Source: a virus
Virus record (IMG/VR): IMGVR_UViG_3300033146_005170
Span: 1-64,000 of that record
Length of the DNA stretch: 64,000 bases
Strand: one strand, 5' to 3'
The notes beneath the pieces are model-generated. The model was not told where the DNA came from and ran no database searches. It was given only the letters and a program-made list of their open reading frames with translations. Positions 20,538-41,031 of this stretch are shown here, piece by piece (the first letter of the stretch is position 1; each line of letters begins with the position of its first letter). The position numbers were made by a program, and so were the translations under genes.

Positions 20538-20568
20538 ATTATATCATAAGATTTATTATGAGTAACAC
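20538..20568 (-). promoter_or_regulatory. Promoter GTTAC-N18-TATAAT
   Basis: gtgttac tcataataaatcttatga tataat on the minus strand. Confidence 0.7.
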
Positions 20569-20572
20569 AAAC

Positions 20573-21142
20573 TTAAATCTTTGCCATTAAATTAAATTTT
20601 AAGGCTATGACTAATTTTTCTTTTGGACTAAGTTTTTTAAGTCCTCTTATAACAAAGTCAAAATTATCTTCTTGTTCTACTATTTCTAAAGTATCTTCTG
20701 TATTATGATCAATATGATCTAGCTCAGTAAGCCCACACTTATCAGTTTGAAGTTCTAAAACTTGAATTATTAAATGTTTATTCATTCCTAACTCTTTAGC
20801 AATTAAATTAGCATCAGGGATAAAATCATGAATTTTTGCAAAGTCTTCAATAAATTTGTAAACTTTAAATCTATTATAGACAATATGACTTGGCAGTTTT
20901 AATACTCTAGATCTAGAGGTAAGAGCATATGTAATAGCTTGTTTTATCCAAAAGCCTGCATAAGTAGAGAACTTAGTACCATAAGAAGGATCATAATGCT
21001 CTATAGCATTTAGTAAGCCAATACTACCTTCTTGAATAAGATCTTGAAAGTCTAAGCCTTTACTTGTTTTTCGATATTTATTAGCTATTATTTTCACTAA
21101 ATATAAGTAATCTTCTACTAGGTCATTTATAAATGGGTCCAC
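20573..21142 (-). CDS. Sigma-70-family factor lacking the region 4.2 HTH
   Basis: Region 2 DLIQEGSIGLLNAIEHYDP..GTKFSTYAGFWIKQAI; ends at LSPKEKLVIALKFNLMAKI (region 4.1). Confidence 0.9.
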   Translation of the reverse strand: MDPFINDLVEDYLYLVKIIANKYRKTSKGLDFQDLIQEGSIGLLNAIEHYDPSYGTKFSTYAGFWIKQAITYALTSRSRVLKLPSHIVYNRFKVYKFIEDFAKIHDFIPDANLIAKELGMNKHLIIQVLELQTDKCGLTELDHIDHNTEDTLEIVEQEDNFDFVIRGLKKLSPKEKLVIALKFNLMAKI

Positions 21143-22560
21143 TCTCTTATCTCCTTTTCAGTTATACGATTATCGAAAAATACAGATACTTCTTCTTTAC
21201 CACTAAGAACTTGTTTAATAAAATCTATATTAGTTTTTATACCTCTAAATAAAGCTACTGCTGGTGTATTTTTAGCAATTAGAACAAAAATATTCACTTC
21301 CTCAGTTTGACCTGGTCTATGAACTCTATCTTGTCCTTGAAAAAATCCATCTACTTCATGATCAAGTTCAGCAAAAATTACATTATGAGCTTGTTGAAGA
21401 TCTAGACCTACTCCTGCTGATTTAGGATTAGCCAAAAGGCATTGAACTTTTTTTGATTTAAAAAGTCTAACTGCTTCATCTTTCTTTTTAGCAGATACTC
21501 TTCCGTGTAATTCTGTAAAAGTTATTTTTTTATTTATAAGCAGCTCTTTCATTAAGTCCATATTAGCATGGAAATGTCCAAAAAGTATAAATTGTTCTGT
21601 ACCTAAATCATCAATTAAATTGCTTAAAACCTCCAAATAAGCTGATGGTTCTTTGGAATCTACTAACTTAGGATTAAACATAGCTCTTCTAGCTTCCATC
21701 ATTAAAGCTGAGCCTTGTAAATAGACCAATTCTTTACTTACATCTTTAAGTTCTAAAAAGCCAAAACTAATAAGTTCACGTAGATTTTTTTCATGCTTTT
21801 CAGCTAAACTAAACTGCTTTATAATCAGTCTTTTTTTAGGCAAGTCTTTTAAAACATCTTTTTTTAATAGTCTTCTACTAAATTTATTTAGCATATTACC
21901 TAATTCTGTTAGTCTTCTCCAACCAGTTATCAAAGGAAAACCATCTTTACCTTTACCCCTAATGACATGAATTCTTTCAAAGTTCTTTTTAGTCACATAA
22001 ACTGCAGGTTTTATTAATTGAAAAATATGAAATAAATCTCTTGGATCTTTAGTTAAAGGTGTACCATTCATTACAGTGACATACTTTGCTTTAAAGGCTA
22101 AAGCTTGAACTACACCAAAACGATTCATTCTACCTGTAGAAGTAGATCTTTTGACTTCTCCAATTTTTACATTTTTAGATTCATCTATGGTAACAATATT
22201 CCAGGGAAATTTTTTAAGCTTTTCATAGTCTCTTACAACTAAATCATAGCTTATAATAACAATATTATGAGCCTCAATATTAAGTTTAGAACGTTGTTTA
22301 ATTGTACCTTTATACTTTAAAGCTTTTAAATTAGTATCAAAATACTCATAAATTTTATCATACCAAGTATCTAGCAATATTGGAGGTACAATTACTAAAG
22401 CCTTGCCACCTTCAGTCTCTAAAACATAAGTAATTAGTAAAAGAGCTCCAAAAGTTTTACCAACTCCAGGATCATGTAAAAGAGCTCCTTTTTGTTTATG
22501 TAAAAGATATTTAAAATCTTCTAACTGATAGTCATATGGATCTAATTTTATCTTAGTCAT
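21127..22560 (-). CDS. SNF2-family helicase
   Basis: HDPGVGKT, IDES, GTP, SAGVGLDL, QGQDRVHRPGQ. Confidence 0.92.
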   Translation of the reverse strand: MTKIKLDPYDYQLEDFKYLLHKQKGALLHDPGVGKTFGALLLITYVLETEGGKALVIVPPILLDTWYDKIYEYFDTNLKALKYKGTIKQRSKLNIEAHNIVIISYDLVVRDYEKLKKFPWNIVTIDESKNVKIGEVKRSTSTGRMNRFGVVQALAFKAKYVTVMNGTPLTKDPRDLFHIFQLIKPAVYVTKKNFERIHVIRGKGKDGFPLITGWRRLTELGNMLNKFSRRLLKKDVLKDLPKKRLIIKQFSLAEKHEKNLRELISFGFLELKDVSKELVYLQGSALMMEARRAMFNPKLVDSKEPSAYLEVLSNLIDDLGTEQFILFGHFHANMDLMKELLINKKITFTELHGRVSAKKKDEAVRLFKSKKVQCLLANPKSAGVGLDLQQAHNVIFAELDHEVDGFFQGQDRVHRPGQTEEVNIFVLIAKNTPAVALFRGIKTNIDFIKQVLSGKEEVSVFFDNRITEKEIREWTHL

Positions 22561-22562
22561 AG

Positions 22563-25307
22563 TTACTCCATAAAATTATCTAATACAATATTCTCTTTAG
22601 AGGCTAGATAAGTATTAATGCCTATAATAGCTCTATGCTTACCTTTTATAATCTTATCAGATCTATGAATCTTAACAGTTACATAAGACTTTTTAGACAT
22701 TTGAGAGGCAAAGCTAACTCTATCTGTTAAATATACACTAATCTTATTTTTATGAATATAGGCAGATAGATTATTATAGCAAGCCATAATATCTAAATAG
22801 AGTATTCCATTTTCAATAAGATAATGCCTATCTTTCATGAGTATCAAATCTCCAACAGTGATATTCATAAGATCTGCTATATCATTCATAATTGTAAGAC
22901 TTTGAGCTATGTCATCCATTGATTTCATTTCTTGATAAACAAGATTAGCTTCAGAAGTACAACTTTTAATATAGCTATTCATAGCAACTTGCATTTTGTC
23001 TACAAGAGCTTCATCACTAGTATAAAGTAAAACATACTGCTGCAGGTAGTCCATTACAGTGATTAGATTGGCTATATTCCTTCTAGGACGATTTTCAAAT
23101 ACTTGCTTATATTTATTTTCTAGATCTTTGTCATAAGCAAGAATTTTGTCTACAAATTCTTCAGGTCTTATGCGCATAACAAATTCTAAAAAATGAGCAC
23201 CAATAATTTCTACATTAAGTCGTTTCATATTTTCTAAAGCTTCAGATCTTCTTTTTGTATGTGTTACTTTATCCATATGAATTAAAATAATTCTATCTTG
23301 AACTGCACCTTCATTTATTTGTTGCTCACCAATTATTGCTAAAGGAGCTAGGAAAGGTGTTTCTTCTATAGTTCTAGACCTGGTACCTCTAGATTCAAAA
23401 CTTTTATTATAAGAAGCTCTAATAGCTTGAGATACTTGACCTTCTTCTCCTCTTTTAGAAGTATTTGCAGAAGGCTTAAATTCATCAAAAATTAAAGGCA
23501 TAAGATTAGTTGAGCTACAAAATTTATTCATAGAGAAAGCTGTAGTTGAGCTAATGCTAGGAAAAGAAGGTCTTTCTGGTGCAAACAGTCTATGTAGTTG
23601 TAACATTGTTTGAGTTTTACCAGAGCCGTGAGTACCTGTTACAAATAAACTTGGCATAGGCTCATTTAAAGTCATACAATGTGGACTAAAGAAAGCTGAA
23701 AAGAACCAAGTAGTTAAAGGTACTATTACTTCATTTGCATTCATATCTAAAAAAGTATTAAAGAAAGTAATTATCTGATCTGCTCTAGGTGGTTCTGTAG
23801 AAGTAAAATTCAATTTAGTCCTAGTAGTGACAGAAGAATCTGTAGTAGACTTAATCTTATCAATAGTATTGTTTAAAGACATAGAGCCTTCATGAGTTAC
23901 ATAGTGCCATTCATCTTTATACCAATATAAACCAGTATAGCTTATCTCCCTTATCTTTTTGTGATCACTTTCGTGCATGATAGCTAGTTTTAGCATCTGT
24001 AAATCCTTATCTGTTCCAACATAGGCCATTCGCATTCCACAAAGTTTAGCAAATAATGCTCTAGAAGTAAAAGCCTCATCTGTAAATTCTTTTATTTCAT
24101 CTTGACAACTAGGACTACTAAATTTAGCCAAAAACTTACTCTTGTCTTCATAGCTAGCGTCCATTTTAACAGTCTCAGAAATTAATTCAATAGTAAAGTT
24201 TGAAAGTCTTCTTGGAGCATCTTCTAGACCTTCTCCTATATAGTAGTACTCTCCATCTTTAATCAATATACCTTCGTATACTGAAGCATTTGCTTCTCCT
24301 GTTTTAATTTCACAAGAGTTACAATCTACGTTATCTACACAACTAAGCATCATTTTGCAACCAAATTTAAACTTATCTGGTGCTTCTTTAGCATAGTCAT
24401 ATAGACCTCTAAAATGTTGTTCAAAAGCAGTAGGTGTCTTATACTGCGTAGATCTATAAGTTTGAATAAACATTCTATTATAAGAAACTATCTGATCAAT
24501 TGTCCAACCTTTAGCAATACCGTAGCTAATAGCTTGCATAGTAAGTAAATTACTGTTTACATTACCTTTAATATCAGAGTTTTCAGCTAGCTTTCTTACA
24601 CAAATAGGTGTAGCAGTTTCTAGTACGACATTATCTGGTACTGGTTTACCTATTTTAACTAGATCAACTAATTTTTTAGTAGATTGAAACCAAGAAACAA
24701 GCAGTTCATTTTTCTTATTCTTTTTAAATTTAGGTGGATATTCTCCAGGCTTAGTAACTAGCTGTTTAATTTGATCAGCAGTTATACCATTAAAAAGAGC
24801 CTCAGGTATCCAAACCTTATAGTTACCATTTTCTCTTTTTACATTTGTACGGCGCCATTGTCGTCCTTTACCTTGAGAATAAACAGCTAAATCTAGAGAA
24901 CTAATAGTTGGTAAACTATCATTGAGCCTAATAGCTAAATTTTTATATCTTAAAGGTAGAGCTTTTACAAACTTAGGATCCATATATAAATTAGGGTTTA
25001 GTTCAAAATGAAAACCTTTACCACCACTGGCGTAAATTCTATAGTCTTCAGCTTCTAAATGATATGTAGCCTTAAAATAAGCTAATACTTCTCTAAGATC
25101 AGCTAAAGCTTCAGTTAAATTAGGGCTATCAAAATCTAAATAAAAAGGTCCCCAATACTCTTGCTCTTCTCCACTTGCTTCTACATCCTCTTGTCTATAT
25201 TTTACGTATAATACAGACTCATATTTAGCATTTTCTGGAATTTGCTCTTCAGGTACGCATTTCCACTTCTCTTTATGCTCAATATGGTAATATTTTAAAC
25301 TGTGCAT
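22563..25307 (-). CDS. Primase-helicase fusion (AEP primase, Cys-rich domain, P-loop helicase)
   Basis: LDFD and SGGKGFH AEP motifs; PICV...CKMMLSC..VDCNSC; GTHGSGKT and LIFDE. Confidence 0.85.
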   Translation of the reverse strand: MHSLKYYHIEHKEKWKCVPEEQIPENAKYESVLYVKYRQEDVEASGEEQEYWGPFYLDFDSPNLTEALADLREVLAYFKATYHLEAEDYRIYASGGKGFHFELNPNLYMDPKFVKALPLRYKNLAIRLNDSLPTISSLDLAVYSQGKGRQWRRTNVKRENGNYKVWIPEALFNGITADQIKQLVTKPGEYPPKFKKNKKNELLVSWFQSTKKLVDLVKIGKPVPDNVVLETATPICVRKLAENSDIKGNVNSNLLTMQAISYGIAKGWTIDQIVSYNRMFIQTYRSTQYKTPTAFEQHFRGLYDYAKEAPDKFKFGCKMMLSCVDNVDCNSCEIKTGEANASVYEGILIKDGEYYYIGEGLEDAPRRLSNFTIELISETVKMDASYEDKSKFLAKFSSPSCQDEIKEFTDEAFTSRALFAKLCGMRMAYVGTDKDLQMLKLAIMHESDHKKIREISYTGLYWYKDEWHYVTHEGSMSLNNTIDKIKSTTDSSVTTRTKLNFTSTEPPRADQIITFFNTFLDMNANEVIVPLTTWFFSAFFSPHCMTLNEPMPSLFVTGTHGSGKTQTMLQLHRLFAPERPSFPSISSTTAFSMNKFCSSTNLMPLIFDEFKPSANTSKRGEEGQVSQAIRASYNKSFESRGTRSRTIEETPFLAPLAIIGEQQINEGAVQDRIILIHMDKVTHTKRRSEALENMKRLNVEIIGAHFLEFVMRIRPEEFVDKILAYDKDLENKYKQVFENRPRRNIANLITVMDYLQQYVLLYTSDEALVDKMQVAMNSYIKSCTSEANLVYQEMKSMDDIAQSLTIMNDIADLMNITVGDLILMKDRHYLIENGILYLDIMACYNNLSAYIHKNKISVYLTDRVSFASQMSKKSYVTVKIHRSDKIIKGKHRAIIGINTYLASKENIVLDNFME

Positions 25308-25319
25308 TTATTTACCCCA

Positions 25320-25892
25320 TTATAAAGGTAGACGACTAGTTTGTACCTTTAGATATGTATCTTCTAAATAGTTATAAGTTTCTTCAAAAGTCCAAGCTTT
25401 ATCTAGACAGTGTACTAAAAAAGCATTATCTTCAATAGGCTGGAGATTAGTACCCCAGTTTTTAAAGTATTCTCCTTGCTTATAGCCATAATCTTGACGA
25501 AGTTTATTTAAAGCTTGTTTACCAAGAATATAATTAACAACTGCCGGATTTTGATTAACTATTAACCTAATAGCTTGATTATATTGATCTGTAGTAAAGG
25601 TGTAGGTTAGCTTTCTAAGAAAAAGGTAATCAGACTCTGCTGGTGCAAGCTCTATAATCGGCTTAAGAGGTTGCTTTTTGTAATAGGCAACATTAATTAT
25701 AAAGATAACTATATCTGCCATTTCAATTAGGATATTTAACTCGTCTCTGTCTACTTTTTTCCAGTCAGCATAACCTAAACTAGCAGTTAGTTCTCCAATT
25801 TCTTCTAAACCTGCAAGCCACATTACTTCAGCATTAGAGTCCATAGTCTTTTGCCAAGCAAATTGTCTTGTGATTATATCTGAAATATTCAT
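25320..25892 (-). CDS. dut: Dimeric all-alpha dUTPase-family pyrophosphatase
   Basis: EEIGE, WKK, IEMADI..F, GKQALNKLRQDYGYKQGEY.K.W...EDN. Confidence 0.85.
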   Translation of the reverse strand: MNISDIITRQFAWQKTMDSNAEVMWLAGLEEIGELTASLGYADWKKVDRDELNILIEMADIVIFIINVAYYKKQPLKPIIELAPAESDYLFLRKLTYTFTTDQYNQAIRLIVNQNPAVVNYILGKQALNKLRQDYGYKQGEYFKNWGTNLQPIEDNAFLVHCLDKAWTFEETYNYLEDTYLKVQTSRLPL

Positions 25893-26090
25893 TATTTATC
25901 CTTTAATATGTATATTAAAATATTATATAATAAGCTATAAAATAAGATGTACGAAGAGAAAAATTAGGGAGTCAAAAAAGAGGGTGGAGCAGCCAAACCT
26001 TTTTAGGGTTAATTTATTTTATCGCCAAACAAACTTAAATTTAAGCTCCACCCCTTATAGTGTAATTAAAAGAACATGGCTAGTTTAATG

Positions 26091-26264
26091 TCATTTACCT
26101 TTCGGACAGCGCTCTCCATAACAAGGATCATTACCAACAAGAACTTCTGGAGTTTGATTTAAAAGTCCTCGTAAGTATCTCCACATAGGAAGCCTTCTTT
26201 TTTTGGCTTCCTTCTGTAAAATTTCTTTTAATTCTACAGGAATGGCTATATGAGTATATTTCAT
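26091..26264 (-). CDS. 57-aa ribbon-helix-helix-like protein (not in ORF track)
   Basis: MKYTHIAIPVELKEILQKEAKKRRLPMWRYLRGLL: strand-helix-helix pattern; ATGA overlap. Confidence 0.6.
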   Translation of the reverse strand: MKYTHIAIPVELKEILQKEAKKRRLPMWRYLRGLLNQTPEVLVGNDPCYGERCPKGK

Positions 26265-26632
26265 TTAAAAAAATCCTTTAAAGAACTTAATTTTTTAGCT
26301 GGCTTAATAAACTCAGCTCTTTTATAGAAAGTACCTTTTTTAGATTCATTCCAACAAGAACTGTCAATATGAAAAGTACTATCTTTATTTATTACAAAAG
26401 CAAAGTCAAGATTATTCATACTTCTTACAAATCTAGCATTGCCTTTACGAATTTGTATAAAACAACCTTCTTTAAGAGCCTTATCTATTTTATCTGAAGA
26501 TAGAATAGAAATTTTAACAGGCTCTTGATTAAAATTTTGAATTACTTCTTTTCTTAAAATGAAGGTATTTAAAACTAGAGCATAGACTATTAATATGACA
26601 ATAATTACTGATTTCATATCAGTCTCCTGCAC
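26261..26632 (-). CDS. N-terminally membrane-anchored hypothetical protein
   Basis: Hydrophobic N-terminus VIIVILIVYALVL. Confidence 0.55.
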   Translation of the reverse strand: MQETDMKSVIIVILIVYALVLNTFILRKEVIQNFNQEPVKISILSSDKIDKALKEGCFIQIRKGNARFVRSMNNLDFAFVINKDSTFHIDSSCWNESKKGTFYKRAEFIKPAKKLSSLKDFFK

Positions 26633-27695
26633 TTACACATTCATTATAAGGTATACCTTGGCCCTGAGCTAAGCATTCTGCTTCTGTACGTTTATCAGCA
26701 CAACAGTGTTTATGAAAACTGTCGTGAATTTCTCTACGTACTTCATAACCCTCATAGTCTTTAAAGCATTTAACCATTGGACCTCTATAATATACGTGAT
26801 CATCAACATGATCAATAACTGTAAGATTCCAATCACCTACACCAGAATAATTTTTTACTATTTGCTTTCCATCATAGACTAAAGTAACTTTATTAGTTGC
26901 TTTATTTCTGTCCCATTTATATCTAGAAGTATAAGCAGCATAGTGTGTTTGATTATCTGCACAGATGCAAGGTTCAGGCTCTGGACAAAAATCTACTTTC
27001 TTAACATTAAGATAATCTAAAGCTGTATAAGTAGTAAGGGTAGATTGTTCATCACCAAACATAACATACATAATATCAGCTAAAGCTTTAAATCTAAATA
27101 CGGTGGTATTACTATCATAAGGATTAAAACCGTCTTGCCAACTCCATTGATAAGGTGCATTTATATAAGTATTTGGGGTTTCTGAAACAGCTAGTCTTAT
27201 AGTATTAGAAACTACAGCGGCTACTTTAGCTCTAAGTTCATACCAGCTATCTTTTTCAAGATTTAGTCTTTTATGAGCTATTCTTTTACCATTATATTTA
27301 TAAGAACAATTAAGCTCGCCATTCTCTACTGTAAGAATTGCGTTTTCAGGTTCCCAGTCTAGTAAAGTTTGGTTTTTGTCGTCAAAGGTAGTATAATAAA
27401 CATACCTAGGTTCTGTATTATTACAATCGGGAGGCTCCGGACAATCTGGTGGTTCAGGACAAGTACAATTGCATTCTGGTGGTTCAGGACAAGTACAGTT
27501 GCATTCTGGTGGTTCAGGACAATCTGGCTCATTAAAAGTAAGCCAATTAATTTGGTCTATAATCTGCTCTAAAGAGGAACTATAGCTTAAAGTAGTTCTA
27601 GGGCCTAAAGTTATAGGATTTATAAAGTATAAGCTTAAAGCTACAAGAAAAAAGGTTGCAATAGCGCCAAATAAGAAGTTTTTCATTGGTAACAC
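26619..27695 (-). CDS. Membrane-anchored/exported protein with Cys-Pro repeats and a beta-sandwich domain
   Basis: N-terminal TM; (PEPPECNCTC)n; CBM-like segment. Confidence 0.6.
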   Translation of the reverse strand: MLPMKNFLFGAIATFFLVALSLYFINPITLGPRTTLSYSSSLEQIIDQINWLTFNEPDCPEPPECNCTCPEPPECNCTCPEPPDCPEPPDCNNTEPRYVYYTTFDDKNQTLLDWEPENAILTVENGELNCSYKYNGKRIAHKRLNLEKDSWYELRAKVAAVVSNTIRLAVSETPNTYINAPYQWSWQDGFNPYDSNTTVFRFKALADIMYVMFGDEQSTLTTYTALDYLNVKKVDFCPEPEPCICADNQTHYAAYTSRYKWDRNKATNKVTLVYDGKQIVKNYSGVGDWNLTVIDHVDDHVYYRGPMVKCFKDYEGYEVRREIHDSFHKHCCADKRTEAECLAQGQGIPYNECVSAGD

Positions 27696-27969
27696 CTATT
27701 AAAGGAATTAAGAGCCTAAAAAGGCTCTAAAGGAGATAGTAAATGCACAAAACTTGAGGAGAAGGCACTTACCGCCAGCACTAGTTTAAAGCAAGAAAAA
27801 AGACTGCACTGGGCGGTTGTGGGGTGTGGTAACTTGCTATTCTCAAGAAAATACCAGCCGTTGAGTAGGCAGCAAAAAATATCAAAAAACGCCTATAGTT
27901 ACTCTTACCATCGTGAAGTGATTGACACCCCTAAACATGAAGCCTAAGAAGGCTTCACTATTAGAAGTG

Positions 27970-28485
27970 TTAAACTTCTTTAGGAGTCTCTTCAGCCTCA
28001 GCATCAGGAGCATCAGGAGCATCTTCAGGAATACCTGCTGGCTCTTCATTATTTGTTTCAGGATTAGGATCCTCAACTTTTTTCTTTCTAGCTCTAGCCA
28101 CAACCGGACGGCCTTTGCTTTTCAACCAATTTGCATACCAAGCAATAGAATTTGAGGTAGTCTCAACGCCTTCAGTTTCTTTCAGGTACCTAGCAAGTTC
28201 CGTATAGCTAAGTTCTGCCAAACTTTCATCTTGCAGTACTTTTATAGTATGATAAGCTTTTGTATTAGGATTCTCTCCTAGGGAGCCTCGCTTTGTCTTT
28301 TTAACGATAACGCCCTCATCATCAAGAGCAAAACCATTCTCATCTAGAAATTCTACCATAGCCTCTCGATCATCAATCTCATTATAATGATTAACGATTT
28401 TTTCCATCAGACGTTCTTTTGAGTCCTTGTCTTCCACCTCTAGCCCTAAACCAGCTGCTCTAGCTATCAACTGTACTTTTGTCAT
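27970..28485 (-). CDS. Putative DNA-binding protein, paralogue of 36547-36888
   Basis: LQDE...SYTELARYL...TTSNSIAWY; acidic tail; AAGGA RBS before ATG 28485. Confidence 0.55.
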   Translation of the reverse strand: MTKVQLIARAAGLGLEVEDKDSKERLMEKIVNHYNEIDDREAMVEFLDENGFALDDEGVIVKKTKRGSLGENPNTKAYHTIKVLQDESLAELSYTELARYLKETEGVETTSNSIAWYANWLKSKGRPVVARARKKKVEDPNPETNNEEPAGIPEDAPDAPDAEAEETPKEV

Positions 28486-28533
28486 AGTATTTCCTTTTAT
28501 GTTTTTCAAAGTTACTTTAGCTTTGATATTATT

Positions 28534-28564
28534 ATTATAACGTGAGTTTTAATACAAGTTACAC
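28534..28564 (-). promoter_or_regulatory. Promoter GTAAC-N18-TATAAT
   Basis: gtgtaac ttgtattaaaactcacgt tataat. Confidence 0.7.
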
Positions 28565-28567
28565 AAT

Positions 28568-28771
28568 TCAAAATTTATCATTTTGAACTAGTCTTACTAT
28601 AGCTTCATATACCTCCTTTGCATAGTTGCTTTTTTCAAAAAACCAATTTGACTCTCCAGCGGCAGTGATGAACTTAATACTTTTATCAAGCTGAATTATC
28701 TCAACTGCCAGATTCAAATTAAAAATATTTTTATCATTATATGGGTTTACAAACCAGCCATTAAATTTCAT
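28568..28771 (-). CDS. Hypothetical protein
   Basis: 67-aa ORF in operon. Confidence 0.55.
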   Translation of the reverse strand: MKFNGWFVNPYNDKNIFNLNLAVEIIQLDKSIKFITAAGESNWFFEKSNYAKEVYEAIVRLVQNDKF

Positions 28772-29713
28772 TTAAAAATCCTCAAGTTGTTTTAATAAGC
28801 ACTCTTCTGGTAGTTTATCATCATACCAACGAACAAATACTCCATGCCTAAGTTTTTTATTCTTGGTTACATCATTAGCTCGAACTGTTAAAACCTTATG
28901 TTTAAGTTTTCCGTCTATAGCCAGTTGAGTTGCTTCTGCTCGACTGTTTAGATCTCCTAAAGAAGTAATTTTACCAATAGGATATATAGCTCCATGATGG
29001 TATACAGCGACTTCTAAAGCTCCTATCATACCTTCAAATTTACCTTTTCCAGGAGTAGTACCTATAACAAAACAATCAACTTCTAATTGCTTTTTGACTT
29101 TAGTCCAGCCTTTTTCATACCTTACTAAGTCATGTTTAAGCATAATACCTTCTCCATTATGCTCCATAATATCATTCCAAAGTCTTTTATAATTGTTAAT
29201 ACTCCAAGATCTGGCATGATAAACATGGTCATCTCCATAAATAAAAGGACTTTTTAAAATTTGAGGTTTTAGACTATCAAACATAAAAGTTCTAATAGTT
29301 TCTCTTCTAGTTAAGTAACTCTCATTAAAAATATTAAATCCAGCCCATCTTTGAACATCAAAGATTATGATTTTTAAATCTTCTGAAACTATTCCTTTTG
29401 AACCTAGTTCTGATTGAGTAGCATTCCAACTATTCTCTGCTATTACTAGAGCTTCAACGTCTAAAATAGTATCATTGGGTAAATTCATTTTCTCTAATTG
29501 AGAAATTATATGAGGAATTTGTTCTGCCTTATTATGACCACCTCTAGTATGAGCATAATACTTATTTTCCACCTTAGATAAAATAAGCCTATGCCCATCA
29601 AATTTTTCTTCTACATAGATATGTGGCAGTTTAGCTAATACGCTAACTCCATCTATATTGATAGACTTTCCTGCTGATAAAAAATTACCGTATTTAGAAC
29701 TTTTAAAAGACAT
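28772..29713 (-). CDS. Minimal ATP-dependent DNA ligase
   Basis: Motif I EEKFDGHR, IFDV, EGIMLK, WTKVK, OB domain GKGKFEGMIGAL...LRHGVF. Confidence 0.9.
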   Translation of the reverse strand: MSFKSSKYGNFLSAGKSINIDGVSVLAKLPHIYVEEKFDGHRLILSKVENKYYAHTRGGHNKAEQIPHIISQLEKMNLPNDTILDVEALVIAENSWNATQSELGSKGIVSEDLKIIIFDVQRWAGFNIFNESYLTRRETIRTFMFDSLKPQILKSPFIYGDDHVYHARSWSINNYKRLWNDIMEHNGEGIMLKHDLVRYEKGWTKVKKQLEVDCFVIGTTPGKGKFEGMIGALEVAVYHHGAIYPIGKITSLGDLNSRAEATQLAIDGKLKHKVLTVRANDVTKNKKLRHGVFVRWYDDKLPEECLLKQLEDF

Positions 29714-29963
29714 AGTTATCTCCTTTTATAAACTCGCATACCTCTTCAGCTAAATCTCTTATATAGGTAGTTTCGCAGGTATCTTCATAATCGCTGCACA
29801 TTGCCACGACACCATCGCATATTTCTGTGATCCCCATAATTTGCAATACATCTAAATAAACTGAGACTGTTCCTATTGAATATTCAGATAATATAGCTTT
29901 AAAGGTATTATGCTCTATAAGATCATTTAAGGTTATCTTATTCTGAGTCAAAGTCAGAGCCAT
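29703..29963 (-). CDS. Hypothetical protein
   Basis: 86-aa ORF in operon. Confidence 0.5.
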   Translation of the reverse strand: MALTLTQNKITLNDLIEHNTFKAILSEYSIGTVSVYLDVLQIMGITEICDGVVAMCSDYEDTCETTYIRDLAEEVCEFIKGDNYVF

Positions 29964-30198
29964 TAAAGCCTCCTTCTATATTTGGTTCATAGCTTTTACC
30001 ACCTACAAAATCTCCATCAGGAGTAACATTATAGGTTTTACCACCCACAAAATCTCCATCAGGTGTAACATTATAAGTTTTGCTTTCTACAAAGTCTCCA
30101 TCAGGTGTAATATTATAAGTATCACTGTTGAGAAGCCTACCTTCAGGTGTCATTGTCAATGCCATTATGGCAATACTTATAGATAAGGCTTTTTTCAT
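29938..30198 (-). CDS. Small exported protein with 14-aa tandem repeats
   Basis: Signal-like N-terminus; TYN(I/V)TPDGDFV(ES/GG)K x3 (42-nt repeats). Confidence 0.65.
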   Translation of the reverse strand: MKKALSISIAIMALTMTPEGRLLNSDTYNITPDGDFVESKTYNVTPDGDFVGGKTYNVTPDGDFVGGKSYEPNIEGGFNGSDFDSE

Positions 30199-30199
30199 A

Positions 30200-30697
30200 T
30201 TATACTTCCTCCTCTAGAACTACTTCATTAGCTTTTAAAGGTCTTGCAAAAGCCCAACGAGCACCAGCTATACCTTTATAGGCTGAAAACTTAGTATCAG
30301 ATATATAACCCTTAAATACAGTCGGTATCCAGTTGTCTGATTCATCATCTCTAACCATAATGACTTTATTAATATTAGAGTTATCTAAGTACCATTCAGG
30401 CTTTTCTCTATATTTATAACCTTGCATCCAAAGTTGATGACTGCTAGTTACTGGCATCCAATCTTCAGAATTTTCTAAAGCAATTTCTATAGACTTACCC
30501 AAAGCCTTAGCTTTGCGAGCCTCAAAAAACTCATCTTCAATAACATAGTAAGTTGGACTATCAAACATAATATTTATAGGTTGAGCTTTATCATATTTAA
30601 CCCAAATATTCTCAGCAGCGTTATACCACCATAGATTGCCATTATTGGCCCAATGCTTAAATATTGGCCAAAGTTGTTTAGCTCTTTCTTTTGTCAT
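30200..30697 (-). CDS. Hypothetical protein
   Basis: 165-aa Trp-rich ORF. Confidence 0.6.
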   Translation of the reverse strand: MTKERAKQLWPIFKHWANNGNLWWYNAAENIWVKYDKAQPINIMFDSPTYYVIEDEFFEARKAKALGKSIEIALENSEDWMPVTSSHQLWMQGYKYREKPEWYLDNSNINKVIMVRDDESDNWIPTVFKGYISDTKFSAYKGIAGARWAFARPLKANEVVLEEEV

Positions 30698-30960
30698 AAT
30701 AAGTCCTCCAATTTATTTTCATTACCTAACAGCTCTCTAATATCTTCTCTTAGTCTTTTTATAGTAGTAGAACCTTCTGCTACTAAAAGACAATGTGCAT
30801 AACCAATCCATCTGTTCATTTTAGCAATATCCCAAATAGATTTATTATTATAAAGGGTTATTAAGAGTTCATTAGCTTTACTGCAGTGTCTGTCTGAAAT
30901 AGACAAACTGTAGTCTAAAATAGCTAGAGTATCTGCTAGCTGTTTCTTTTTCTTTTTCAT
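30694..30960 (-). CDS. Hypothetical protein
   Basis: KMNRWIGY motif, resembling small phage proteins. Confidence 0.55.
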   Translation of the reverse strand: MKKKKKQLADTLAILDYSLSISDRHCSKANELLITLYNNKSIWDIAKMNRWIGYAHCLLVAEGSTTIKRLREDIRELLGNENKLEDLL

Positions 30961-31098
30961 TTTTCCATCCTTACTAGAATACCAAATCTAGAGTTAAAAA
31001 TTCTAGAAGCCTTTATATAACCAGCACGTTTCCAGAGTTCTCTGAAATAACAAACTGGACAACTTAGTTTATTAACCCTAGTAGGGGTTAAAATTACT

Positions 31099-31335
31099 TT
31101 AGGCATTGTTAAGTTTATAGCTATCTTCAGCTAGTAACCAAAGTCTATTTTCTGACATATAAGCTTCTTCTTTAGACTCATATTCTCTGCCAACTTTAGG
31201 TAGCTTCCAAGTTTTTGATTTTTTATCAAACCAAATTTCTTGATCGTCAATGCCATAGGCACCAACTTTGATATAGTCAATGCCATTGACATTGTAGTGC
31301 CAACTAGCATCCCCATGATAGTTTCTAAACTTCAC
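31099..31335 (-). CDS. Hypothetical protein
   Basis: GTG start with AAGGAG RBS. Confidence 0.55.
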   Translation of the reverse strand: MKFRNYHGDASWHYNVNGIDYIKVGAYGIDDQEIWFDKKSKTWKLPKVGREYESKEEAYMSENRLWLLAEDSYKLNNA

Positions 31336-31423
31336 TTTTTCTCCTTAGTAGATTGAGGTGAAGGAGTATTGTAGCATTCACTTTTTCTCCTTAGTAGATT
31401 AGGATGAAGGAATATTGTAGCAT
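31332..31423. repeat. 46-nt tandem duplication
   Basis: Two near-identical copies, 31332-31377 and 31378-31423. Confidence 0.9.
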
Positions 31424-31697
31424 CCATAAGTTCCCAAAATATTATAGCCTCAGGAATTACATCTAAAGCAACAAGTTCTAAATGGCTAAACAGTTGTTTT
31501 AATAGAGCTCTTCCATGCCCTTGTCTCATAGGTGAAATTAAGATATTATATATCCTAGCTTCACCATCTGAGATATAAAAGCATATTATTCCAATATCTA
31601 AGCCTTTATACAGAACTTGATATTCTTTTAACTCAGGCTTTTCTAAATCTTTACAAATAAAACTTAGCTTATAGGGCCGAGTAGCCATAGCTAGCAT
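31332..31697 (-). CDS. GNAT-like acetyltransferase
   Basis: IYNILISPMRQGHGRALLKQL (acetyl-CoA motif A); AIIFW. Confidence 0.65.
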   Translation of the reverse strand: MLAMATRPYKLSFICKDLEKPELKEYQVLYKGLDIGIICFYISDGEARIYNILISPMRQGHGRALLKQLFSHLELVALDVIPEAIIFWELMDATIFLHPNLLRRKSECYNTPSPQSTKEKK

Positions 31698-31899
31698 TTC
31701 TTACATTTTTCCAGAAATAGCTTCCAACACTGTCAGCATCTCTAAGACCCTCATAGACCTCAAATGGAACATCATAATACTCATATTCTTTACCACTTAC
31801 AAAGGTAATAAATAGAGAATTAGTTTGGCTATTGTAACCAATACTAGCTATATTGCTGCTTTCTACCTCAGTAGAATGATCCATACGTGGTTTTGACAT
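31669..31899 (-). CDS. KTSC-domain protein
   Basis: VESSNIASIGYN...LFITFVSGKEYEYYDVP..VYEGL..ADSVGSYF; AAGGAG before ATG 31899. Confidence 0.9.
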   Translation of the reverse strand: MSKPRMDHSTEVESSNIASIGYNSQTNSLFITFVSGKEYEYYDVPFEVYEGLRDADSVGSYFWKNVRNASYGYSAL

Positions 31900-31929
31900 T
31901 TTTAACTCCTTTAATATATATATACTATA

Positions 31930-31958
31930 ATTATATAATGAGTTTTTTAATGGGTTAT
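31930..31958 (-). promoter_or_regulatory. Promoter variant ATAAC-N18-TATAAT
   Basis: gaataac ccattaaaaaactcatta tataat. Confidence 0.6.
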
Positions 31959-32191
31959 TCGTAGTATCTTTTGACTTTAACTTGTAATTTTGAGATGGCA
32001 ATATCATAAACTCGCCATATTCTTTGTCGAGAGATTTGAAGAATTTCTGCTATTTCAGCTACATCATAAGGTCTGTCCTCTAGTTGTATATCTAGAGAAC
32101 ATTTACCTTTTTTATTTCTGTATTCGCAGAAGATTTTTTTGCAGTCTTTGGACGTGTCCGCATGCTCAGGGCATACATCCATAGGTTTCAT
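31955..32191 (-). CDS. Stand-alone sigma-70 region 4.2-like HTH protein with a Cys/His N-terminus
   Basis: RPYDVAEIAEILQISRQRIWRVYDIAISKL; C-x2-H...C-x4-C-x8-C. Confidence 0.8.
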   Translation of the reverse strand: MKPMDVCPEHADTSKDCKKIFCEYRNKKGKCSLDIQLEDRPYDVAEIAEILQISRQRIWRVYDIAISKLQVKVKRYYE

Positions 32192-32192
32192 A

Positions 32193-32438
32193 TTACTCTT
32201 CTTTAACTGGTTTAGTCATGAATTCAGTAAGTTTAACCAAACTGGCATCATCATTATCAACAGCGTAACGAAGCATAGTAAGAGTATCAGCAGCTTTAGC
32301 ACTGTTTAGATTAAATTCAGTAACAAGATCTGATACTAATAGTTTAATTGGTTCATTTGACTCATCTTGGCCGATTTCTACTAGAGCTGCTCCAGCCTTA
32401 GCAAGAGCCTCAACAAAATTTTTGTAAGCATCTATCAT
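32193..32438 (-). CDS. Hypothetical protein
   Basis: 81-aa ORF with RBS. Confidence 0.55.
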   Translation of the reverse strand: MIDAYKNFVEALAKAGAALVEIGQDESNEPIKLLVSDLVTEFNLNSAKAADTLTMLRYAVDNDDASLVKLTEFMTKPVKEE

Positions 32439-32447
32439 AATAATCCT

Positions 32448-33071
32448 TTAAGAAATAGTGACAGTTCTTTTTCTGCCATAATTGTAGTCTGCATCTCTAA
32501 GACATACAGAAATAATATCTCCTGGGCTAGGAGCAACAGAGTAAACGTGAGCAACATGAGGTGTTGAAGGAGTACCTAAATCTGTTTTTGTAGTTTCATT
32601 AAATACTACTGGCGTACCAGAGTTCCAATCAAGAGTAATATCAGTAGATGTTGAGGCCTCAATAATTGGTCTTGTTTGTTGCTGAATAAGATAGTCAATA
32701 TCTAGCTCAGTATCATCTTCAAATACGATAGTACTTGAAGTTACATTTTTAAAACCTAGAGCTTCAAAGTACAGTCTGTAGTTATTCTTAATTAGAATGT
32801 GATCTGCTTGCTCTTTAAAAAGTCCTGCATCAAAAATAATTGGTAAATTTGAAGTTTTTAAATCAATATTACCATTACCTTGATCATCTAGTAACTTACC
32901 AATTCTAGATAATGCGGCTAGATTTAGATAGAATTCATTTACTCCTCCTGAGCCATCGTCTGTACCTATTGTTAGCCAATTACCAGCAAGAGCTACCTCT
33001 CTTGCTACTACTGGATCTGCATATATAGTTGAGAAAATATCTCCACGAAGAAGTATTCCTGTTTGTGCCAT
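32448..33071 (-). CDS. Hypothetical protein, possibly virion-associated
   Basis: N-terminus ILLRGD...ADPVVAREVAL resembles a fibre-attachment motif; AAGGA before ATG 33071. Confidence 0.45.
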   Translation of the reverse strand: MAQTGILLRGDIFSTIYADPVVAREVALAGNWLTIGTDDGSGGVNEFYLNLAALSRIGKLLDDQGNGNIDLKTSNLPIIFDAGLFKEQADHILIKNNYRLYFEALGFKNVTSSTIVFEDDTELDIDYLIQQQTRPIIEASTSTDITLDWNSGTPVVFNETTKTDLGTPSTPHVAHVYSVAPSPGDIISVCLRDADYNYGRKRTVTIS

Positions 33072-33092
33072 TTTTTGTCCTTTCAAATTTAA

Positions 33093-35399: not shown

Positions 35400-35428
35400 A
35401 TTATACTATAAGATGTTTTATTGGGTAC
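35400..35428 (-). promoter_or_regulatory. Promoter variant GTACC-N18-TATAAT
   Basis: gagtacc caataaaacatcttatag tataat. Confidence 0.55.
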
Positions 35429-36379: not shown

Positions 36380-36546
36380 TGTTTTATTTTTGCCTATTTA
36401 GTGATTCTATAGATTTATAAAGAATAAAAAAAGGACGACTGTTCAGTCGTCCATCTTGAATATGGCGAGTATTAGATACCTTAGGTTTATTATTCCGTAG
36501 ATTAAGGCCACCACCACAAGAAGGGCGGAGGCGAAGATTAGCCCGC

Positions 36547-36955: not shown

Positions 36956-36994
36956 ATTATAACGTAAGCTTCACTATGTGTTACACATAGTGAA
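36956..36994 (-). promoter_or_regulatory. Promoter GTAAC-N18-TATAAT overlapped by a palindrome
   Basis: gtgtaac acatagtgaagcttacgt tataat; TTCACTATGTG-TTA-CACATAGTGAA at 36970-36994. Confidence 0.72.
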
Positions 36995-37313: not shown

Positions 37314-37342
37314 ATTATAACACGAGTTTTATTAAAGGTTAC
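37314..37342 (-). promoter_or_regulatory. Promoter GTAAC-N18-TATAAT
   Basis: aggtaac ctttaataaaactcgtgt tataat. Confidence 0.7.
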
Positions 37343-40765: not shown

Positions 40766-41031
40766 AATAGGCCTCTCTTTACTAAGACGCTAGTAACTCG
40801 TACTAGCGTCTTAGTGCTTACATTAAAGCTTTTTAGGTAATTAAACCATTCAGCCATGACTTTCTCCTTAGTTCTTTCAGGTAATATCCTATTAATACTT
40901 AGGCGGGTGCCATACTTAATTATGTGTACACTGTATACACACTTATTAGTCCCCTGCTTCGCCCGGAAAATTTTTCAAATTCTCTAGAAGGGGCTACCAC
41001 TAAATAAGCTTAACATTAGTATATAGGCATT

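Follow-up and report, generated by a model that had tools for sequence, protein, structure and literature searches.

Two genes on the minus strand of a viral genome from IMG/VR, IMGVR_UViG_3300033146_005170 (G000; 74,014 bp, direct terminal repeats, rated complete), appear to encode the parts of a divided sigma factor. The first 64 kb of this record (64,000 nucleotides) form the window analysed here. One gene (20573–21142) encodes a truncated sigma-70-family protein of 189 aa and the other (31955–32191) a 78-aa protein, in which a four-cysteine (Cys4) N-terminal module precedes a helix-turn-helix (HTH) of the sigma region 4.2 type; both open reading frames (ORFs) lie at the coordinates that an earlier sequence-only reading had given. 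Judged by their sequences, the two proteins jointly hold the sigma-2 and sigma-4 reading functions. We propose that the phage may make its sigma factor as two polypeptides, divided within sigma domain 4 where region 4.1 gives way to region 4.2, a reading in which we place about as much belief as doubt. In a fuller version, for which doubt slightly outweighs belief, the Cys4 mini-protein would bind metal, bring region 4.2 in trans to the region 4.1 that the large protein keeps, dock there and confer a new −35 specificity; this lineage would then be one instance of a widespread, undescribed class of phage sigma factors with this cut point.

Two complete relatives were available for comparison, G001 (IMGVR_UViG_3300033151_000166; 75,676 bp) and G002 (IMGVR_UViG_3300033146_000857; 96,471 bp, with terminal repeats). 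BLASTP matches (E ≤ 1e-5) in G001 or G002 were obtained for 52 of 83 ORFs of G000, the small gene among them, counted over our own ORF selection. Deposited phages are very distant, with at most 35% identity in the sigma; in the capsid protein the nearest cultured phages are approximately 25% identical.

The truncated sigma factor

The sigma gene has a GTG start and overlaps the end of the SNF2 helicase gene. Its product matched Pfam Sigma70_r2 (E = 4e-17; 62 bits against a cut-off of 24) and a PHROG sigma family (E = 2.5e-36). The motif KFSTYAGFWIKQAIT retains residues that we take, from sigma-70 numbering, to be the equivalents of Y430, W434, Q437 and T440, while the W433 position is occupied by F. 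The phage sigma is primary-like, and these residues preserve the determinants with which primary sigmas recognise the −10 element. The family profile aligned without a break to RpoS residues 94–281 (of approximately 331–336), that is, from region 2.1 to region 4.1, and to SigA as far as the start of region 4.2. The LSPKEKLVIALKFNL stretch aligned with the LspREr.V..lRfGl motif of region 4.1. Sigma70_r3 was weak in the orthologues (23.1 bits in G002 and 21.8 bits in G007, a genome fragment, with a cut-off of 25.3 bits), and Pfam gave no Sigma70_r4 match in the phage sigma or in these two orthologues. When aligned with full-length sigmas, the protein stops one residue short of where helix 1 of the region 4.2 HTH would begin. 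On these alignments it carries regions 2, 3 and 4.1 and is without region 1 and region 4.2, which bears out the earlier description of a sigma with an intact region 2 that stops just after region 4.1.

This end point is shared. Every one of the four homologues at 61–63% identity is 189 aa long, and seven distinct sigmas, the most divergent at 36% identity, have the same end and a common C-terminus L-(K/Q)-(F/Y)-(N/G)-(L/I)-(M/L)-(A/S)-K-(I/V) lying in the loop before the region 4.2 HTH. The sigmas of G002 (187 aa, 36% identity) and G007 (198 aa) stop at the same place, with the tail ...GL(L/M)SK(I/V). The gene also keeps its neighbours in G000, G001 and G002, with the SNF2 helicase on one side and a conserved protein of 215 aa on the other. 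Since seven homologues down to this level of identity end alike, the truncation is a stable design rather than decay.

The truncation itself, and nothing further, would be explained if the gene were decaying or recently truncated, or if region 4.2 were supplied by recoding through a frameshift, readthrough or a hidden exon. We consider this extremely improbable, given the constant end and conserved tail just described and the use made of the DNA beyond the stop codon. That DNA, a spacer of 101 nt, is occupied by the promoter-like sequence GTTAC-N18-TATAAT (20538–20566, minus strand, read from 20566 to 20538), found by motif scan directly 3′ of the stop, and by a Shine–Dalgarno sequence for the next gene. 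It holds no remnant of region 4.2, so that the sequence-only reading was right to see a promoter here and not a frameshifted remnant. Six-frame scans of G000, G001 and G002 uncovered no region-4 coding potential other than the small gene. A pseudogene, a frameshifted remnant, a hidden exon and a second sigma were each rejected on the basis of conservation and these scans.

The small Cys4 protein

The small protein contains its HTH at residues ~42–70. Alone, it scored below the Pfam cut-off for Sigma70_r4 (E = 0.0016, 18.4 bits against 24.1, profile positions 19–49 of 50), while the G002 orthologue exceeded it (27.8 bits), as did distant members of the family (28.5, 32.1, 37.0 and 37.7 bits). 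All matches within the family are confined to profile positions ~13/19 to 49, which correspond to the region 4.2 half. Among natural proteins of solved structure, region 4 of Thermus aquaticus SigA gave the best matches to the family profile (E = 2e-5, residues 39–74). The proposal that this ORF encodes a region 4.2-type piece is supported by relatives that pass the Sigma70_r4 cut-off and by the profile match to SigA region 4.

An AlphaFold2 model built from 14 sequences placed the HTH in helices 44–51 and 55–77 (predicted local distance difference test, pLDDT, 85–92), with the Cys-rich half at pLDDT 54–57; an earlier model from seven sequences was poor (pLDDT 66) and drew the HTH as a single long helix. 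In a Foldseek comparison the modelled HTH overlaid SigA domain 4 at 0.6–1.1 Å over approximately 30 residues, a non-significant match (E > 1).

The N-terminus had been described as Cys/His-rich. The cysteine part of this description stands, as C7, C17, C22 and C31 are conserved, while the histidine is not. The last of the four lies in a C-S-L-D motif directly before the HTH, and the spacing, C-x9-C-x4-C-x8-C here, varies within the family. From these cysteines, the Cys4 module is probably zinc-binding. WhiB-like proteins have the pattern C-X(14-22)-C-X2-C-X5-C plus a G[VI]WGG turn; a WhiB-like iron–sulfur identity was rejected because the Cys spacing of the small protein differs and the GVWGG motif is absent. 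In the HTH, the DNA-contact arginines (equivalents of R584 and R586) are nearly invariant, and the reading helix shows the changes E585 to Q/H, R588 to W and Q589 to R (E. coli numbering).

The small gene and the truncated sigma gene occur together in all three complete genomes of the lineage (3/3), a sample consisting of syntenic relatives only, and the distance between them is 9 and 14 kb in the two relatives. This is the outcome of the co-occurrence check among related phages that the sequence-only reading had suggested. A full-length sigma beside the small protein in such relatives, which that reading had named as counter-evidence, was not found in G001 or G002, and six-frame scans of all three genomes revealed neither a full-length sigma nor a second region-4 match, the small protein being the only one. 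The small protein is 73% identical in G001, a level above that of most shared genes, and 45% identical in G002; from its conservation it is a core gene of the lineage. Beyond these genomes, the contigs matched in a metagenome scan with the small-protein profile were all 1–2 kb long, and the records with distant relatives of the protein (G008 and others) are fragments and uninformative on co-occurrence. The G007 fragment carries the truncated sigma and begins inside the helicase gene, so the small-gene region falls off the contig. A tblastn search with the small protein and two distant family members gave no match in deposited phages. A fused, longer form was also looked for without success, a result that counts as weak evidence.

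In all three genomes the small gene is the last of a conserved three-gene block. It follows a 212-aa ORF (32448–33086, minus strand), the first gene of the block, and an acidic protein of 81–117 aa, which in G000 is an 81-aa ORF (32193–32438, minus strand) that ends 1 nt before the small gene and is syntenic in the three genomes. The 81-aa ORF had no Pfam match and no homology to anything known. It is possible that it and the small gene are translationally coupled, and its product might conceivably be a third component of the sigma system.

The same type of HTH was also seen in other arrangements. Fusions of a zinc ribbon (CxxC...CxxC), a Sigma70_r4-type HTH (33.9 bits) and a single-stranded-DNA-binding protein (SSB), 229–235 aa in length, are encoded by L018 (1273–1980, plus strand) and L017 (1099–1788, minus strand), two records without sigma region 2. 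One further protein of 647 aa (P0017) consists of seven tandem Sigma70_r4 repeats (Pfam 180 bits, seven stretches), and another of 395 aa (P0021) is a chain of repeated HTH units.

Several phages are known to encode proteins aimed at sigma region 4 or the β-flap, T4 AsiA and gp33 among them. The small protein resembles region 4.2 of primary sigmas and might likewise act on the host enzyme rather than on the phage sigma, either competing with sigma-A region 4 for the β-flap or −35 boxes in a form of host shut-off, or retargeting the holoenzyme, the second option of the sequence-only reading. We think this improbable. The helices of region 4.1 are missing from the small protein, its altered reading residues speak against an interaction with a host TTGACA, no link to a host sigma appears in the data, and the constant cut point of the phage sigma would be left unexplained.

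Promoters of the non-structural module

G000 has a G+C content of approximately 31–35% and the layout of a tailed phage, with a plus-strand structural module that extends from 41 kb round to 10 kb. Replication and nucleotide metabolism occupy a minus-strand module that runs from approximately 40 kb down to 10 kb and includes DNA polymerase A, a primase-like protein of 914 aa, the SNF2 helicase and a 5′–3′ exonuclease. The promoters of this non-structural module have three parts: a short asymmetric motif in the −35 region, ACTYG at −20 to −16, and TATAAT. Four exact copies of GTWAC-N18-TATAAT were found in G000 (0.14 expected), spread over 20.5–37.3 kb and each on the minus strand. Besides the post-sigma site, motif scans placed copies with GTAAC at 28534–28562 (with ACTC at −20 to −17), 36956–36984 and 37314–37342. 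Two looser members are also on the minus strand. One, GTACC-N18-TATAAT (35400–35428), lies upstream of the unit in which the small gene is transcribed; the other, ATAAC-N18-TATAAT (31930–31958), overlaps the 3′ end of the small gene and reads into a KTSC-domain gene. The sigma gene and the small gene each lie downstream of promoters of this family, and the position after the sigma gene bears a member of the same family in G001 (34299) and G002 (18779).

When sites in the three genomes were picked by CTY-N4-TATAAT alone, they held extra information at −37 to −31 in every genome. In G002, A−36, A−35 and G−34 were present in 12–13 of 13 sites; in G001, A−36 and G−34 in 10 of 13; and in G000, G−35, T−34 and C−31 in 6–7 of eight. 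The ACTYG element at −20 to −16 is common to the sites of all three genomes and is partly of the TG type. On the coding strand, AAG-N14-CTY-N4-TATAAT occurred 12 times in G002 (0.16 expected) and six times in G001 (0.04 expected). Sites of the family are all on the coding strand of the non-structural module and are confined to it. Canonical TTGACA-N17-TATAAT was not enriched (100 found against 82 ± 9 expected).

As the sigma retains the TATAAT-reading residues of primary sigmas, these promoters fit the phage sigma. A short asymmetric motif at a fixed distance from the −10 element points to a reader that is tethered to the polymerase rather than to a dimeric regulator. The altered reading helix that the sequence-only reading had picked out is matched by a −35-region motif other than TTGACA, and the changes in the specificity residues of the small protein fit such a motif.

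Other features of transcription were noted in passing. Strong hairpins resembling intrinsic terminators lie on the transcribed strand at 36433–36452 and 27711–27728 of the window (both minus strand) and separate the units of the non-structural module from one another; overall, terminator-like sites exceed expectation (29 found, 8.7 expected). Three near-identical leaders of approximately 45 nt (...TTTACTGGTAAG...CCAGAGATTATAATCTGAGGAGAT) precede small early genes at 71029–72083 of G002 (plus strand), with TATAAT 2 nt before the Shine–Dalgarno sequence, and are reminiscent of a shared leader at 39–41 kb of the window. A late promoter was sought and none was identified. Just upstream of the structural operon, the three relatives share a conserved non-coding block comprising AGGCGGGTRCCAT, approximately 40 nt, a TATAGCCCC-like sequence and then CCAGGAAATTTT (40902–40990 of the window, plus strand; 13633 of G001 and 70317 of G002, minus strand), followed in G002 by tandem repeats. 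The block from AGGCGGGTRCCAT to CCAGGAAATTTT could be a late promoter, a packaging site or something else.

A proposed two-polypeptide sigma and its known counterparts

Under the reading that we propose, the 189-aa protein would supply sigma-2, sigma-3 with the linker and the first two helices of sigma-4 (region 4.1), which would sit at the RNA exit channel and the β-flap. The 78-aa protein would add the missing HTH, held by its four-cysteine N-terminal module; docked beside region 4.1 on RNA polymerase, it would read the motif at approximately −36 to −31 (GTAAC here, AAG(T) in the relatives), leaving TATAAT and the ACTYG extension to the large protein. Because both genes follow promoters of this family, host sigma-A could start transcription at the consensus −10 element and the phage pair then reinforce it in a positive loop. 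We infer each of these steps, namely binding of the two proteins to each other, to the polymerase and to metal, the promoters served and the feedback loop, from sequence evidence.

Several observations favour this arrangement. Both halves are closest to primary-like sigmas, the large one to RpoS and SigA and the small one to SigA region 4. Two-subunit sigmas also exist naturally, as in SigO–RsoA, Tn916 Sig7-8, T4 gp55/33 and SPO1 gp34/33 (bioRxiv 10.64898/2026.10.01.756105). Finally, a laboratory version of E. coli sigma-70 without region 4.2 was inactive on lacUV5, a promoter of the −10/−35 type, and had defects in initial RNA synthesis (PMC7948647); given this impairment, a natural sigma without region 4.2 plausibly needs that function supplied.

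Other observations count against it, and several of them favour an alternative in which the truncated sigma is self-sufficient, using TATAAT and the ACTYG extension with no −35 reader, while the small protein binds DNA as a regulator in its own right, or does something else, and has no more in common with sigmas than the sigma-4.2 type of HTH. The promoters have a perfect consensus −10 element plus a conserved extension, and region 4.2 is dispensable to E. coli sigma-70 at extended −10 promoters, where it still initiates when the −35-reading region is missing (Kumar et al. 1993, cited in PMC7948647). The two genes are non-adjacent, 9–14 kb apart, and their co-occurrence comes from three syntenic relatives that share many genes anyway. 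Stand-alone viral Sigma70_r4 proteins of approximately 80 aa are common among ESM Atlas clusters, in agreement with the caveat already attached to the sequence-only reading that such proteins occur in other phages. The same type of HTH is found in a non-sigma context, in the SSB fusions described above; as these come from phage records without sigma region 2, one of them 90% complete, the module can work without a sigma partner. The small protein has its own Cys4 module, which suggests independent folding, so that it may fold alone. Two details also fit the divided sigma poorly: the CSLD stretch of the small protein lines up with FGL(D) at the end of helix 2, a segment that is present in the sigma as well, and the −35-region motifs of G000 (GTAAC) and G001 (AAGyA) overlap partially and only after a 1-bp shift, sharing G, then T, then A/C, while the reading helices are nearly identical.

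On balance we consider a self-sufficient sigma rather unlikely, if a serious contender. It would leave the conserved asymmetric −35-region motif without a reader and offers no account of why the small protein should be the sole sigma-4-like HTH in three genomes, or of the near-invariance of its DNA-contact arginines. The promoters are not accompanied by a palindromic operator, and in the E. coli laboratory system loss of region 4.2 impairs initial transcription.

Sigma domain 4 is regarded as a single folding and functional unit. If a conserved natural cut does run between its halves, the −35 reader could come as a subunit of its own, separately regulated and exchangeable, and promoter specificity could thereby be regulated or swapped in a new way. 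Annotation of the many small phage proteins labelled just as sigma-70 region 4 would benefit too. The system is compact, with two small proteins and a defined three-part promoter conserved in three genomes, and if the reading is true it would offer a ready-made orthogonal two-part transcription switch.

With these qualifications the phage system appears to belong with the two-subunit sigma factors, among which the published split sigmas divide the functions differently. The genes of SigO–RsoA and of Sig7-8 are adjacent. Compared with these pairs, the phage genes are 9–14 kb apart, the large piece is primary-like, with region 3 and region 4.1, and the small piece has an added Cys4 module. By the account in bioRxiv 10.64898/2026.10.01.756105, SigO–RsoA of B. 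subtilis and Sig7-8 of Tn916 resemble the phage pair in that two polypeptides share the −10- and −35-reading functions, and Sig7-8 drives its own promoter in a positive loop such as we propose here; each of their subunits supplies a whole region (2 or 4), whereas the phage cut would fall inside domain 4. In limited literature searches, no publication turned up on a sigma that is divided within domain 4.

A second likeness is to phage systems. In T4, gp33 works at the β-flap; it is not known to be a homologue of sigma region 4.2 or to read DNA. T4 late promoters have no known −35 element and depend on the sliding clamp. By comparison, the putative partner here carries an HTH of the sigma-4.2 type, and a −35-region motif is present in the promoters. 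What is shared with T4 gp55 and gp33 (plus the gp45 clamp) and with SPO1 gp34 and gp33, as the same preprint describes them, is a phage sigma without a −35 reader and a small phage-encoded partner.

The stand-alone viral Sigma70_r4 mini-proteins and the zinc-ribbon/HTH/SSB fusions have the same type of HTH, a similar size and a phage origin, and some have a Cys-rich N-terminus. Among the phages that encode them, a few records were checked for a truncated sigma and none was found in these. The family described here is distinguished by its C-x9-C-x4-C-x8-C-SLD motif. A parallel to the large piece is the E. coli sigma-Δ4.2 construct (residues 1–553; PMC7948647), which likewise keeps part of region 4.1 and is without the −35-reading HTH. 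That construct is artificial and impaired, whereas the phage sigma is natural and conserved, ends later (equivalent to approximately residue 569, so that helix 2 is kept), has no region 1 and is accompanied by a separate 4.2-like protein. Within this company, the lineage is set apart by its small piece with a Cys4 module, by the 9–14 kb between the two genes and by the three-part promoter.

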